Position numbers: made by a program. Below, piece by piece: positions 6,001 to 12,000 of a stretch of 64,000 nucleotides of DNA. Each line of letters begins with the position of its first letter. The first letter of the stretch is position 1. This stretch comes from Escherichia coli. Its GTDB lineage: Bacteria; Pseudomonadota; Gammaproteobacteria; Enterobacterales; Enterobacteriaceae. The stretch lies in assembly GCF_003991155.1 (NCBI RefSeq), contig NZ_CP031295.1, one strand, 5' to 3'.

Positions 6001-9000
6001 ATATCATGCACATGCTCTATCACCGCCAGCCCCGGAAAGTCATCCAGGCACTGGTTGGTCACAGGGATCCACGTTCGATGGAGGTTTATACCAGAGTGTT
6101 TGCACTGGATATGGCTGCCACGCTGGCAGTGCCTTTCACAGGTGACGGGCGGGATGCTGCGGAGATCCTGCGTACACTGCCTCCCCTGAGGTGACGGCAT
6201 ACGCGCTTCCTTATATAAGCTGTGGTCAGCAGAACAGACATAACATAAGCTGGAGCATGTATATAAGCTGTAGTGAGTAAGTCATGTTTTATGAAGGGAG
6301 CAATGCCTCAGGATCAGGTTACGGGATCACTTACGTAAGGGACAGGCAGATGGCAGCTCAGCTACAGACAGCACTGCAGGAAACAGAATATAAACTGCAG
6401 TGAGCAGACCACTCACTGCGCCGGTTAATATAAGCTGTAGTCAGTAAAGGAGCGCTCTTCACTGACTACAGTTTATGTTCAGCGGGATTTGAAGAGTTTT
6501 TCCAGGTCATCCAGCGTGATGCCCAGTTTCTCAAGCAGGGCAAGCTTCTCCGCCATCTCCGGACTGACTTTTTCCGCAGGTGAAGGTTGCAACGGATTTT
6601 CCTTACTCTCGTCATTCGGCGCTTTTAACCGGGGACGCCGGTAGTGAATACAGAAGAATTTTGTCCGCCCCCGCTGGATCTCCGTGTAATCAAGATATCC
6701 AATCTCGCGCAACTGCTCCATTGCCCGTCTGACCGTCTGGTTCTGGGAAAATACAGGAGACTTCAGATTGAGGCGTGCACGCAGCCGCGCCAGCGATATC
6801 GGTGCCGGATCCCGGGGCAGGCTCTCTATAAAGGTGTAGAGTGCCTGGGCGGACTCCCGTCGCTTCAGGGCATTAATCGCCTTAAGCTGGAGAAGGACTT
6901 TTCTGTCAAACTGGTACAGTTCAAACAGGCGGGGATCGGCCTGTAACTGCACAATATCCCGCTCAGTATCGTAGTAAGCTGACTGTACCAGATGGGTGAT
7001 ATATTCCCGGGTGTGCTTCTCATCGGTACGGGAAAACGAAATCACGGTACCGGCAATGCGCTTCAGGGAAGGGCTGATGCGCTCACGCAGCCTGCGGGAT
7101 GACTGGCTTGAAGGTATACCACACAGTTTTGCAAACTCAACAAAAGGCAGTTCAACTTTGTCACCAATCACGTTATGGCGGGCAAAGGAATGAATGATCC
7201 CCACCCAGGTCTTGAAATCATTATCCATATCCAGGCGGGGGCCGGTGATCTCAACCTTATCGAATCCCTCAGCACGGGCCAGGGAAAGACGTGTCAGCTC
7301 TTCCGTGGCATCAGTACGTGACAGTGTATTTTTTTTACTGTTCTTCAGTGATTTAAGGGTCGGTACAAAAACGCCCAGACGCATCAGCGCCACAGGTTGT
7401 ACGGTGTTGTTATTGTTTGGTGTCAGTGTCACCAGCTCACCGGAGGACTTATCCACCTCGCCGAACAGTTTTTTGATGTCTGAATTTTCGTTTTCCAGAA
7501 AGCCTCCAGCCTGTGGACAGTAAAAGAATAAACAGAAAATCGTGTGTCAGAACTCCGCTAACTGACTGAAGAAAAACCTGCAGCCTGTATTTAACAACTG
7601 AGTCTGGCATACTGACCATAGTTTATGTCATTAACTTACTTCAGTATATGGATTACTGAATACAGCTTATCATTAGCATGTTACAGTTTATCAGTAACAT
7701 GCCACAGCTTATGTGATCGTGGTCCCGGCCCATGAGTGACAAGGTTTGCAGCGATATGGGGATCTTTAATGGATCCTTTGTTGATCATTCATGGATCTGT
7801 TTACTGGATCGGGCCTCCGGATATGTGGATAAATCATTCCAGAAGGACAGCGCACACAACCGTTTTATGAAAGGGCTTCAGGGCGTACCTGCTCCCTGTA
7901 ACTACAGATACATTGCGCTTCCTCGCCGGTTCGCGGGCTTCGCCCGGTCACCGGTCTGCGGCGAGCACTGTTTTTTCTGATGTCTGTCTTTACAGGTAAT
8001 TTTTGACGGAATCTGCCGTACTTCCTGAGCGTACGGTCATATCCGAAGTACACTTCATATGTGTGTTTCAATGCCAGGGATTGTGTATACAAACTACAGG
8101 TGTCAGCGCCAGTGATATAAGACGGTAATTCACCATTTGGATTGTCCGCTCCACCCAACATGTTGTTTCCTTAAGGTTCTCACACCAGAAAGGACATCAA
8201 CATGCTGAGCAGAGAGGACTTTTACATGATAAAGCAAATGCGCCAGCAGGGCGCGTACATTGTCGATATTGCGGCTCAGATTGGTTGCTCTGAACGGACG
8301 GTCAGACGCTACCTCAAATACCCTGAACCGCCAGCCAGAAAGACCCGCCACAAAATGGTTAAGCTGAAACCGTTTATGGATTACATCGACATGCGCCTGG
8401 CAGAGAATGTCTGGAATAGCGAGGTTATCTTCGCGGAGATTAAGGCAATGGGTTATACGGGCGGACGTTCCATGCTGCGTTACTACATCCAGCCCAAACG
8501 TAAAATGCGTCCGTCAAAAAGAACAAGGAGAGAGTTACCGGTTAAAAGAGAAACGTAAAGCTGGAGTGCTGACCAAAAACACAACGCCAATCAGTGATGA
8601 TGAAATGGTGCAAAGCGGACAGCATCAGTAACGAAAGTATTTAGCGGGCATGAAAATGGCAAATAACGGTCAAACATCGTGGCGTTGACATAGTCGCAGT
8701 TTTGGTGAACGAATCACAGACAAAGATGCCATGCACCAGGCTGTTGTTCAGTATGCAGAGCGGGCCGCAGAGAAACTACGTGGGGAGCGTCAGTATTGCC
8801 GGCAGGTGACGACATTTGTACGGACATCCCCCTGAACCCTGTTACAGCAATGCCGCTGTGGAAAAGCTTTCATTGCCCACACAGGACAGCCGGGACATTA
8901 TTGCCGCCGCATGCAGAGCCTTAAACCATGTCTGGCGTGAAGGGTACCGCTATATGAAGGCAGGAGTCATGCTGGCTGATTTCACACCATCGGGTATAGC

Positions 9001-12000
9001 GCAGCCGGGATTATTTGATGAAATCCAGCCCCGTAAAAACAGTGAAAAGTTAATGAAAACACTCGATGAACTGAACCAGTCGGGAAAAGGGAAAGTGTGG
9101 TTTGCGGGGCGAGGAACCGCCCCTGAATGGCAAATGAAACGGGAAATGTTGAGTCAGTGTTATACAACTAAATGGCGAGATATTCCCCTGGCCAGGCTGG
9201 GTTAGTTCAGTCATCTCCGAACATATTTTCAGCGTTTCTTCTGGTCTGGTCTTCACCGTCATTTCTCGACAGACTCTGCTCTGTAAGGGGAGTACTGCAA
9301 TCCACAGACGTATGGAGACCAGATTGTTTTTCCAGTAATTCAATCAATTTCTTTTCAACCGAAAAAGCAGGTAATGACTCCAACTTATTGATAGTGTTTT
9401 ATGTTCAGATAATGCCCGATGACTTTGTCATGCAGCTCCACCGATTTTGAGAACGACAGCGACTTCCGTCCCAGCCGTGCCAGGTGCTGCCTCAGATTCA
9501 GGTTATGCCGCTCAATTCGCTGCGTATATCGCTTGCTGATTACGTGCAGCTTTCCCTTCAGGCGGGATTCATACAGCGGCCAGCCATCCGTCATCCATAT
9601 CACCACGTCAAAGGGTGACAGCAGGCTCATAAGACGCCCCAGCGTCGCCATAGTGCGTTCACCGAATACGTGCGCAACAACCGTCTTCCGGAGACTGTCA
9701 TACGCGTAAAACAGCCAGCGCTGGCGCGATTTAGCCCCGACATAGCCCCACTGTTCGTCCATTTCCGCGCAGACGATGACGTCACTGCCCGGCTGTATGC
9801 GCGAGGTTACCGACTGCGGCCTGAGTTTTTTAAGTGACGTAAAATCGTGTTGAGGCCAACGCCCATAATGCGGGCAGTTACCCGGCATCCAACGCCATTC
9901 ATGGCCATATCAATGATTTTCTGGTGCGTACCGGGTTGAGAAGCGGTGTAAGTGAACTGCAGTTGCCATGTTTTACGGCAGTGAGAGCAGAGATAGCGCT
10001 GATGTCCGGCGGTGCTTTTGCCGTTACGCACCACCCCGTCAGTAGCTGAACAGGAGGGACAGCTGATAGAAACAGAAGCCACTGGAGCACCTCAAAAACA
10101 CCATCATACACTAAATCAGTAAGTTGGCAGCATCACCGATCCCTTCATTTAGTGACTGCCCCTGGGTTTTTCATGCTCTCCTGCGTCCTAGAGAACTTGC
10201 CAATAACCTACATTATTTTTGCTTTGCCATTACCAATCGTCCTGAACAAGTTCATTTTAAAGCCAAAGCGCTGCCCAACTTTTATCCTCAATACCACATC
10301 GTCAGCAGGAAATAACCTAATCCCTGTGTTGGGATCTTATAATCGCTAATGATAATTATTTACATTTTATAGCTTCTGCTATAAAACATAGTAGTTGCTA
10401 TGTTTATTCTAATTTTGCTCACTATAGGTACTAAATCATGCTCTCAATAAAAAAAGTAACCATGCTCTTGGGGTGCCTAGTCCTCACCTGCTCGATAGCA
10501 TTTCAGGCGAGTGCAGCTGAAAAATTCAAGGTCATTACAACTTTTACCATCATCGCAGATATGGCCAAAAACGTGGCTGGAGATGCTGCAGAAGTCTCAT
10601 CCATAACCAAGCCTGGTGCAGAAATTCATGAGTATCAGCCTACCCCTGGCGATATTAAACGTGCGCAGGGGGCACAACTGATTCTCGCCAATGGTATGAA
10701 TCTGGAATTGTGGTTCCAACGCTTTTACCAGCATCTCAATGGGGTTCCAGAAGTAATTGTCTCTTCGGGTGTGACGCCAGTAGGGATCACCGAAGGGCCC
10801 TATGAGGGCAAACCTAACCCCCATGCCTGGATGTCGCCAGATAATGCTCTGATTTACGTCGATAATATTCGTGATGCGTTTATAAAATACGATCCGGCAA
10901 ATGCACAAACCTACCAACGTAATGCCGATACTTATAAAGCCAAGATTACCCAAACCCTTGCCCCCCTGCGTAAGCAGATTGCGGAACTCCCTGAGAATCA
11001 GCGATGGATGGTCACCAGTGAAGGGGCTTTTTCTTATCTCGCACGCGATTTGGGGCTAAAAGAGCTTTATCTGTGGCCGATTAATGCCGATCAACAAGGA
11101 ACACCGCAGCAGGTACGTAAGGTTGTTGATATAGTTAAGAAAAATCATATCCCGGCAGTCTTTAGCGAGAGTACGATTTCCGATAAACCAGCGCGTCAGG
11201 TTGCGCGTGAAACCGGCGCGCACTACGGTGGTGTGCTCTATGTCGATTCCCTGAGCACAGAAAACGGCCCGGTACCTACGTATATCGACCTTCTGAAGGT
11301 TACTACCAGTACGCTGGTACAGGGAATTAAAGCCGGAAAAAGGGAGAAATAATGATGCAATCTGCAGGCATTGTCGTTAATGATGTTACTGTCACCTGGC
11401 GTAACGGGCACACAGCACTGCGCGATGCATCCTTCACAGTACCAGGCGGATCTATTGCCGCTCTGGTTGGGGTAAACGGTTCCGGAAAATCGACGTTGTT
11501 TAAAGCGATTATGGGATTTGTGCGTCTGACCAGCGGGAAGATATCTGTTCTGGGTATTCCCACACGACAGGCGCTACAGAAAAACCTGGTTGCCTACGTC
11601 CCTCAGTCAGAAGAGGTTGACTGGTCATTTCCTGTACTGGTGGAAGATGTGGTGATGATGGGCCGCTATGGGCATATGGGTATGTTGCGTATCGCCAAAA
11701 AGAGGGATCGTCAGATTGTCACCGATGCGCTGGAACGTGTCGATATGGTGGATTTTCGCCATCGACAAATCGGCGAGCTTTCCGGTGGACAAAAGAAACG
11801 CGTCTTTCTGGCGAGAGCGATTGCACAGCAGGGTGATGTGATCCTGCTGGATGAACCTTTTACCGGCGTTGATGTGAAAACCGAAGCGAAAATCATCAGC
11901 CTGTTGAGGGAGTTACGCGCGGAAGGCAAAACGATGCTTGTCTCAACGCACAATCTCGGATCCGTCACGACATTTTGCGATTATACGGTCATGGTCAAAG

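Follow-up and report, generated by a model that had tools for sequence, protein, structure and literature searches.

How did a truncated istA and a truncated umuC/impB-type polymerase gene come to lie side by side next to the RepFIB replicon of an Escherichia coli plasmid? The region lies in a 64-kb stretch of DNA, the whole of which we call the window. An earlier note had described an IstA N-terminal HTH fragment of ~118 codons, followed about 130 bp later by a umuC/impB C-terminal fragment with an internal frameshift near 8833; it had taken neither gene to be complete, read the region as a recombination scar, and concluded that a polymerase operon once occupied the position. Alignment to imp operon and IS21 references, which the note had proposed, bears out the two source genes (an IS21-family istA and a polymerase gene of umuC/impB type), their incompleteness and the scar, and sets the breakpoints at 8101, 8525 and 8690/8691. 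The proposed history is probably wrong. Positions 8101-9369 very probably form an inert mosaic junction of three gene stubs on a ColV-type IncFIB/FII virulence plasmid, produced by IS21 and IS1 rearrangements (Table 1). All DNA matches of the scar have E = 0 and 98-100% identity. Derivation from a single intact gene of another family was considered and rejected, since istA/istB account for one part and impB for the other, each in a reference locus of its own.

Table 1. Coordinates of the features that make up the scar, with its left and right boundaries.
Feature	Position	Strand	Remarks
RepFIB-flanking DNA, left boundary	7457-8100	.	Ends ...ACTACAGG against the IS21 left end
IS21 remnant, internally deleted, 590 of 2131 bp	8101-8690	+	blastn against full IS21 of comparator locus L003
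IS21 left terminal inverted repeat, TGTCAGCGCCA	8101-8111	+	Direct sequence reading
istA 5' ORF, 118 codons	8202-8558	+	IstA residues 1-108 plus 10 out-of-frame codons
IS21 internal deletion junction, ~1541 bp lost	8524-8526	+	1-2-bp (C)A microhomology
istB 3' end, last 35 codons and stop	8524-8631	+	33/35 identical to the IstB C-terminus
IS21 right terminal inverted repeat, TGGCGTTGACA (reverse complement of TGTCAACGCCA)	8680-8690	+	
impB 3' 41%, codons 251-424 of 424	8691-9205	+	umuC homologue of IncI/IncF plasmids; native stop at 9205
11-bp deletion (TTGCAGTAAAA) frameshifting the impB fragment	between 8833 and 8834	+	Alignment against intact impB
stbB/parR-like 3' fragment, ~last 53 of 138 codons	9207-9369	-	Collinear with L004 4528-4690
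IS1, 768 bp, right boundary	9370-10137	-	PGAP IS1A transposase 9385-10082

The IS21 part of the scar is larger than an istA fragment. In blastn against the full IS21 of L003, 8101-8525 corresponds to IS21 positions 1-425 (99.3% identity) and 8525-8690 to positions 1965-2131 (98.8% over 167 bp), the two parts being fused at 8525; the left 426 bp are 100% identical to the IS21 of another comparator, L005. At the junction, IS21 ...CAAAAAGAACA/GTTCGC and ...AATATCA/AAGGAGAGAGT have become CAAAAAGAACAAGGAGAGAGT in the window. The termini are 5'-TG...CA-3' inverted repeats, identical to the ends of the full-length IS21 copies in L003, L005, L006 and L007. Thus, while the istA fragment itself stands, reading the IS21 sequence as istA only does not, because both IS ends are present, and the element begins at 8101, some 100 bp upstream of the start given in the note (8202). 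The ~130 bp taken for a spacer (8559-8690) are the IS21 right end with the 3' codons of istB and the right inverted repeat, so that the polymerase fragment directly abuts the IS terminus.

The coding capacity left in the remnant is small. The first 108 residues of the 118-codon ORF match IstA of full-length IS21 at 107 of 108 positions, and the ORF is recognised by the NCBIfam IS21 transposase model (E 1.3e-16) and, in a PDB sequence search, aligns with residues 1-112 of IS5376 IstA (E 7.6e-24). In IstA, HTH-1 comprises residues 1-39 and HTH-2 residues 55-104 (PMC10122671). An intact IstA has an HTH-HTH-DDE(rve)-C-terminal arrangement over 390 residues; the deletion has removed residues 109-390, and with them the rve (113-222) and C-terminal (291-361) domains. 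An intact istB, which encodes the AAA+ helper ATPase, has 265 codons, of which the last 35 remain; residues 1-230 are gone, as is the Pfam IstB_IS21 domain (residues 8-243 of intact IstB), and PGAP labels the piece 'AAA family ATPase, missing N-terminus'. Judged by these losses, the remnant is incapable of transposing by itself, and blastn finds no second IS21 sequence elsewhere in the 64-kb window.

Compared with full-length IS21 (2131 bp, istA and istB; e.g., that of pUTI89), the remnant has the same terminal repeats (TGTCAGCGCCA / TGTCAACGCCA) and istA start and is 99% identical over the retained 590 bp, but it has lost ~1541 bp and is not flanked by a target-site duplication: ...ACAGG stands on its left and TAGT... 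on its right. Comparator IS21 insertions have 4-bp duplications, ACCA in L003, CAGC in pUTI89 and ATAT in L006. A 14-bp left flank shared with pUTI89, given by megablast, was rejected since blastn and direct reading give ~4 bp (CAGC/CAGG); this likeness is due to chance or target preference, not to shared ancestry.

The impB fragment starts at the base immediately after the IS21 end, 132 bp past the stop of the istA ORF, and corresponds to impB nt 750-1275. Positions 8691-9369 align with 4001-4690 of L004 (676/690 identical), the sole differences being an 11-bp gap, which is the frameshift noticed earlier, and three substitutions. ImpB residues 251-297 are identical to the reference and residues 302-424 carry one substitution; correspondingly, the NCBIfam UmuC model is matched at positions 250-296 (E 3.6e-23) and 301-422 (E 3.4e-62), Pfam IMS_C in both frames (E 1.6e-5 and 6.1e-7) and DUF4113 with E 7e-21. 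Intact ImpB consists of IMS (6-149), IMS_C (245-359) and DUF4113 (372-419) domains. The little-finger (IMS_C) and DUF4113 regions are therefore represented in the fragment, though with the frame broken, and the N-terminal IMS catalytic (palm/fingers) domain is missing, as the fragment starts at codon 251.

The source of this fragment is an impCAB operon, a umuDC-like operon with a dinI-like impC that is found in IncI/IncF leading regions; codons 251-424 match the copy of an IncI-gamma/K1 plasmid. In impCAB loci stbB lies downstream in convergent orientation, and the same neighbour in the same orientation is found in the window. Unlike the operon, the window lacks impC, impA and impB codons 1-250: in blastn, the impC-impA-impB-stbB-parM segment of L004 finds 8691-9369 only in the 64-kb window. 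The stbB/parR-like fragment, overlooked by the earlier note, belongs to the same imported segment. Its counterpart in L004 is annotated as 'plasmid partitioning/stability family protein'; the stub is cut by IS1 at 9370 and lacks the Pfam Plasmid_stab_B domain (residues 8-79). As the missing domains indicate, the scar is predicted to encode no working polymerase, transposase or partition protein.

To the left, window positions 5086/6000-8100 align collinearly, at 96-98%, with RepFIB-region DNA from L006, L009 and L010. In L010 and in 713 PLSDB records this flank runs uninterrupted past the position equivalent to 8100, and in those 713 plasmids it continues into unrelated sequence without any imp sequence. 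To the right, IS1 has no target duplication (left flank GAAAAAGCA, right flank GATCCCTTC). An Rfam scan of 7400-10300 gave no RNA family at E <= 0.1, and in a promoter/terminator scan of 7900-9400 sites were no more numerous than in shuffled sequence.

One explanation is that an impCAB/umuDC-type operon and an IS21 were once intact beside RepFIB and decayed in place, with ~130 bp unassigned between them. Both fragments are indeed real and adjacent, and IS21 does enter impB elsewhere: a simple impB::IS21 insertion with a 4-bp duplication is present in ~124 PLSDB records. In pDA33135-139-type IncF plasmids (IncFIA/FIB; L008) the same IS is found in the same target gene, but as an independent event 270 bp further 3', with a complete IS21, both impB halves kept and a 4-bp duplication (L004 positions 4271-4274). 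A simple insertion into impB at the scar was rejected, since a synthetic query of impB 5' sequence joined to the IS21 left end finds just this separate event, 270 bp further 3', and the impB 5' sequence expected at the scar's junction (...ATTGTCTGTAGT) lies against IS21 in no record. Decay in place is unlikely on several further counts. The 130 bp belong to IS21, no target duplication is present, the missing imp sequences are nowhere in the window, and the left flank is RepFIB DNA that is continuous in the 713 plasmids. The lack of a duplication and the unbroken left flank suggest that the impB-stbB piece was probably joined by rearrangement.

Searches of PLSDB with synthetic left- and right-junction queries point the same way. 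The identical junction of the IS21 right end with impB, including the 11-bp deletion, is found in pRHB42-C22_2 (F-type; L005) next to a complete IS21, with impC and 101 nt from the start of impA beyond the other side of the element and full stbB-parM downstream of impB, i.e., in a native impC...stbB-parM leading-region setting. Taken with the points above, this makes it most likely that the impB-stbB segment was imported, an IS21-mediated rearrangement having carried it to its place beside RepFIB. The junction of RepFIB with the IS21 left end is identical in pGA_Eco3 (L009), whose IS21 is interrupted by an IS3-family insertion but otherwise complete; in L006, a complete IS21 lies 86 bp further from RepFIB. 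The full left junction is present in two PLSDB records and the full right junction in seven, without overlap, and a direct precursor (RepFIB, complete IS21 and TAGTCGCAG-impB) was not found in PLSDB. Target duplications are absent from pRHB42-C22_2 and pGA_Eco3 too; rather than ancestors, these plasmids could be later derivatives rearranged by way of IS21 homology.

The distribution of the scar bears on whether any part of it is active. Near-identical copies of the complete scar occur in 1082 PLSDB plasmids and in 1094 of the 5426 complete E. coli genomes, most of them at 100% identity. The 590-bp IS21 derivative might be a live, non-autonomous MITE-like element, mobilised by IstA/IstB of full IS21 copies. 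Its 425-bp left and ~166-bp right parts include both terminal repeats and, on this reading, the subterminal IstA-binding repeats, but no functional transposase. IstA binds the L1/L2 and R1/R2 repeats in the ends of IS21-family elements (PMC10122671), and complete IS21 elements are frequent in the plasmids and chromosomes of E. coli. We regard this as highly improbable. Copies in several contexts, each with a target duplication, would mark such an element; instead, the deletion junction is found in 1116 records (1111 genomes, about one copy per genome) vs 1099 for the scar with flanks, and this near equality places the element in practically one context and gives no hint of spread. In other elements, shortened transposases are known to act as inhibitors of transposition, Tn5 Inh and IS1 InsA being examples. 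Co-option of the 118-aa IstA N-terminus as an inhibitor of IS21 transposition would be in keeping with them, as this ORF still has HTH-1 and HTH-2, the domains with which IstA binds IS21 ends, together with the native upstream region; the 129-aa ImpB C-terminus might likewise modulate host Pol V. Values from qRT-PCR are tabulated for pS88003, pS88004 and pS88006 of plasmid pS88, but the transcript levels of the pS88 ORFs of the region did not change significantly in any condition tested (PMC3438092). Co-option is scarcely credible for other reasons as well. Recent shared ancestry explains the conservation: almost every copy is 100% identical, which leaves no signal of selection. The 129-aa ORF (part of the little finger and DUF4113) starts at a TTG created by the frameshift, with no recognised start context, and had no match in a PDB sequence search. 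The promoter scan showed no enrichment, and PGAP treats all the ORFs as pseudogenes. That the 118-aa two-HTH product is a trans-dominant IS21 inhibitor in cells with ColV-type plasmids, and/or that the 590-bp element is mobilised by full IS21, is on the whole very unlikely; if true, the product would damp IS21 activity in those cells.

An inert junction made by IS21 and IS1 remains our preferred reading, and its origin may be described in four steps; the numbering of steps 2-4 implies no fixed order. In step 1, recorded in the right junction, an IS21 right end was placed against impB codon 250/251, in the impCAB-stbBA part of an IncF/IncI leading region, after which the impB remnant lost 11 bp. 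In step 2, which we infer, the left end of that IS21 copy would have been joined to DNA beside the RepFIB replicon. Two IS21 copies, one of them next to RepFIB and the other within impB, may have recombined homologously, or IS21 may have transposed intramolecularly and so produced an adjacent deletion or inversion; either route would account for the absence of a target duplication. Step 3, recorded in the deletion junction, was the loss of ~1541 bp inside IS21 at the microhomology, which left both ends and removed the IstA DDE catalytic domain and the IstB AAA+ domain. In step 4, recorded at the IS1 boundary, IS1 cut stbB and now connects the stub to the sitABCD-aerobactin block. The scar may persist because it hitch-hikes beside an essential replicon on a successful plasmid lineage.

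The scar is real, very probably inert and already known. PGAP calls three pseudogenes at it, and more than a thousand sequenced genomes carry such pseudogene annotation; earlier annotations of ColV-type plasmids already treat this locus as a fragment or a pseudogene beside RepFIB repA, and in pS88 a 'putative fragment of ImpB' is annotated beside RepFIB repA (PMC3438092). Published annotations list separate ORFs or pseudogenes, whereas a single two-ended deleted IS21 and the junction positions are unstated in them. For annotation, the three called pseudogenes amount to two objects, a deleted IS21 and an imported impB-stbB stub. Alone, the scar is of little importance; it is useful as a lineage marker. 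The junction of RepFIB, mini-IS21, 'impB, 'stbB and IS1 is an exact and easily typed signature, common to ~20% of complete E. coli genomes, in which ColV/ColBM-type and related IncFIB plasmids carry it, and it is a record of the joining of the RepFIB replicon to the sit-aerobactin virulence block by IS21 and IS1.

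The istA fragment of the scar (8101-9369) is an ORF of 118 codons, as an earlier note on this DNA had counted; the coordinates given there (8202-9205) hold as well. Its matches are the NCBIfam model for IS21-family transposases (E 1.3e-16) and residues 1-112 of IstA of IS5376, whose structure is solved (E 7.6e-24). Its residues 1-108 are identical to IstA of full-length IS21 at 107 of 108 positions, and the final 10 are out-of-frame read-through. A full-length IS21 (locus L003; 2131 bp, istA of 390 codons and istB of 265) aligns to the window as two blocks, IS 1-425 to 8101-8525 and IS 1965-2131 to 8525-8690. 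The spacing of about 130 bp between the istA and polymerase fragments, measured correctly in the earlier note, therefore belongs to the same element as the istA fragment and forms its right end, which that note overlooked. The interior, ~1541 bp, is gone; the breakpoint is a 1-2-bp microhomology, at which ...GAACA|GTTCGC and ...ATCA|AAGGAG are joined as ...GAACAAGGAG. The loss takes out the rve/DDE (113-222) and C-terminal domains of IstA and the entire ATPase domain of IstB (8-243).

The umuC-like fragment is likewise real, with Pfam IMS_C and DUF4113 matches and NCBIfam UmuC matches at positions 250-296 and 301-422 in two reading frames. It begins at codon 251 of 424 of impB, on the base directly after the IS21 right end. 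The catalytic IMS domain (residues 6-149) is missing from it, as are impA and impC. Window 8691-9369 corresponds to 4001-4690 of L004, an IncI-gamma/K1 plasmid locus with intact impB, with three substitutions and one 11-bp gap only. The 11 bp (TTGCAGTAAAA) are absent between 8833 and 8834, in agreement with the frameshift previously placed near 8833. Alignment to IS21 and the impB locus, the check that the earlier note had proposed, thus sets the breakpoints at base level (8101, 8525 and 8690|8691). A stbB/parR-like stub, severed by IS1, went unmentioned there and has no PGAP annotation among the records examined.

Features of the scar and of its plasmid setting (window coordinates)
Feature	Position	Strand	Remarks
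RepFIB repA	6479-7456	minus	PGAP annotation of p13C1079T-1
~20-21-nt repeats	6213-6447, 7661-7712		flank RepFIB repA on both sides; consistent with replicon iterons
IS21 left terminal repeat TGTCAGCGCCA	starts 8101
istA ORF	8202-8558
istB 3' end	8524-8631		last 35 codons, 33/35 identical to IstB
IS21 right end ...TGGCGTTGACA	stops 8690		with right terminal repeat
impB fragment	8691-9205		position includes stop
stbB/parR-like plasmid-stability gene, 3' stub	9207-9369	minus	convergent, contiguous with impB as in native IncI/IncF loci
IS1, three copies	3332-4099, 9370-10137, 25620-26387		no usual 9-bp target duplication at any copy
sitABCD-aerobactin block	10138-25619		bracketed by two IS1 in inverted orientation
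43-bp tandem repeat x 12	28900-29415		just downstream of sopAB; taken to be the sopC centromere array
~365-bp dispersed repeat	29797-30167, 33422-33783		leading region; 94-97% identity
9-nt tandem repeat AACAGCCGC x 7.9	60343-60413		perfect

The earlier note took the scar to show that a polymerase operon once occupied this position. The evidence instead favours import of the impB piece through an IS21-mediated rearrangement over decay in place. Ordinary comparator IS21 insertions bear 4-bp target duplications (ACCA in L003, CAGC in pUTI89, ATAT in L006, a plasmid locus with a complete IS21 near RepFIB); none flanks the window's remnant, where the left flank ends ...ACAGG and the right begins TAGT.... 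The left flank is RepFIB-adjacent DNA. In 713 PLSDB plasmids it extends a further 86 bp before a solo IS21-like right end, 25 nt long and 96% identical to IS21 2107-2131 (3201-3320 of the unbroken flank L010, and L006 5303-5388 and 7519-7550), beyond which lie unrelated genes. The 64-kb window has no further imp or IS21 sequence beyond the scar. The two junctions occur separately elsewhere. In plasmid pRHB42-C22_2, whose IS21 is complete, the right-end|impB junction and the deletion of 11 bp are both identical to the window; intact stbB-parM follow downstream, and impC with the first 101 nt of impA lies past IS21. In pGA_Eco3 the RepFIB|left-end junction is identical to the window, and IS21 is complete but for an IS3-family insertion near its right end.

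These duplication, flank and junction data point to a history in which the junction of IS21 with impB, like the loss of 11 bp, arose in a leading-region imp-stb module, which IS21 would then have connected to the RepFIB flank; homologous recombination between two IS21 copies and intramolecular transposition fit the data equally. No precursor was found in which a complete IS21 lies between the two junctions, so we infer the order of the later steps: the IS21 interior was deleted after the RepFIB linkage, and IS1 trimmed stbB, linking the stub to the sit-aerobactin block.

A simple impB::IS21 insertion in ~124 PLSDB plasmids, including NZ_CP029577.1 (101500-110500), is located 270 bp to the 3' side of the window junction, duplicates L004 4271-4274 and keeps both impB halves; it is independent, and IS21 has therefore struck impB at least twice. 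In pEC012-3 a complete IS21 is inserted inside the solo IS21-like end with the duplication ATAT, and IS21 may be attracted to such ends. Between the IS21 left end and truncated impA, pRHB42-C22_2 holds 793 bp of foreign DNA (7698-8490 of its locus, L005) that by eye looks to carry the C-terminal end of an IS5/IS1182-type transposase (ORF ...VEHPFGTIKMWMG...); its imp operon was thus also rearranged by a second IS.

The window belongs to an E. coli virulence plasmid of the ColV-type IncFIB/FII class, and 4100-40490 is collinear (99.7%) with p13C1079T-1 (NZ_CP019268.1). The PGAP gene order there is ompT, an SDR-family oxidoreductase gene (presumably hlyF), mig-14, int, RepFIB repA, the region of interest, IS1, sitABCD, iucABCD-iutA, IS1, sopAB, leading-region genes and tra. 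The inverted IS1 pair suggests that the virulence module was assembled or inverted via IS1. The 1.2 kb around the scar, at coverage ≥80%, is present in 1082 plasmids of PLSDB and, among 5426 complete E. coli genomes, in 1094; most copies are 100% identical.

Since none of the four stubs keeps its catalytic or principal functional domain, the region is treated, from sequence, as inert. The HTH domains of IS5376 IstA span residues 1-39 and 55-104 (PMC10122671). The 118-aa ORF holds exactly both IstA HTH domains, those contacting the IS21 terminal repeats; in principle it could bind IS21 ends, and the 590-bp element, with both ends kept, could be mobilised in trans. The deletion junction, however, is found in 1116 records from 1111 genomes, about once per genome, and 1099 records hold the full scar; it is therefore essentially confined to this context, which counts against mobility. 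Because nearly all copies are identical, their conservation reflects recent ancestry, which counts against selection. For pS88, a table of qRT-PCR values that covers the neighbouring ORFs and a 'putative fragment of ImpB' (pS88006) shows no significant change under any of the conditions (PMC3438092). Neither an Rfam family nor an excess of promoter-like sites was found at the region.

The pieces are remnants, not functional members, of the IS21 family and of the plasmid impCAB/umuDC-like operons. PGAP independently calls the same pieces as three pseudogenes: an IS21 family transposase missing its C-terminus, an AAA ATPase missing its N-terminus, and a frameshifted DinB/UmuC or DUF4113 protein missing its N-terminus. 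More than a thousand RefSeq genomes already have pseudogenes annotated at the locus, and pS88 lists an ImpB fragment there. The scar is real, but ordinary and already known; newly added are its exact anatomy (a single IS21 that has lost its interior but keeps both ends, breakpoints placed to the base, and a stbB stub) and evidence that the impB piece was imported through IS21-mediated rearrangement.
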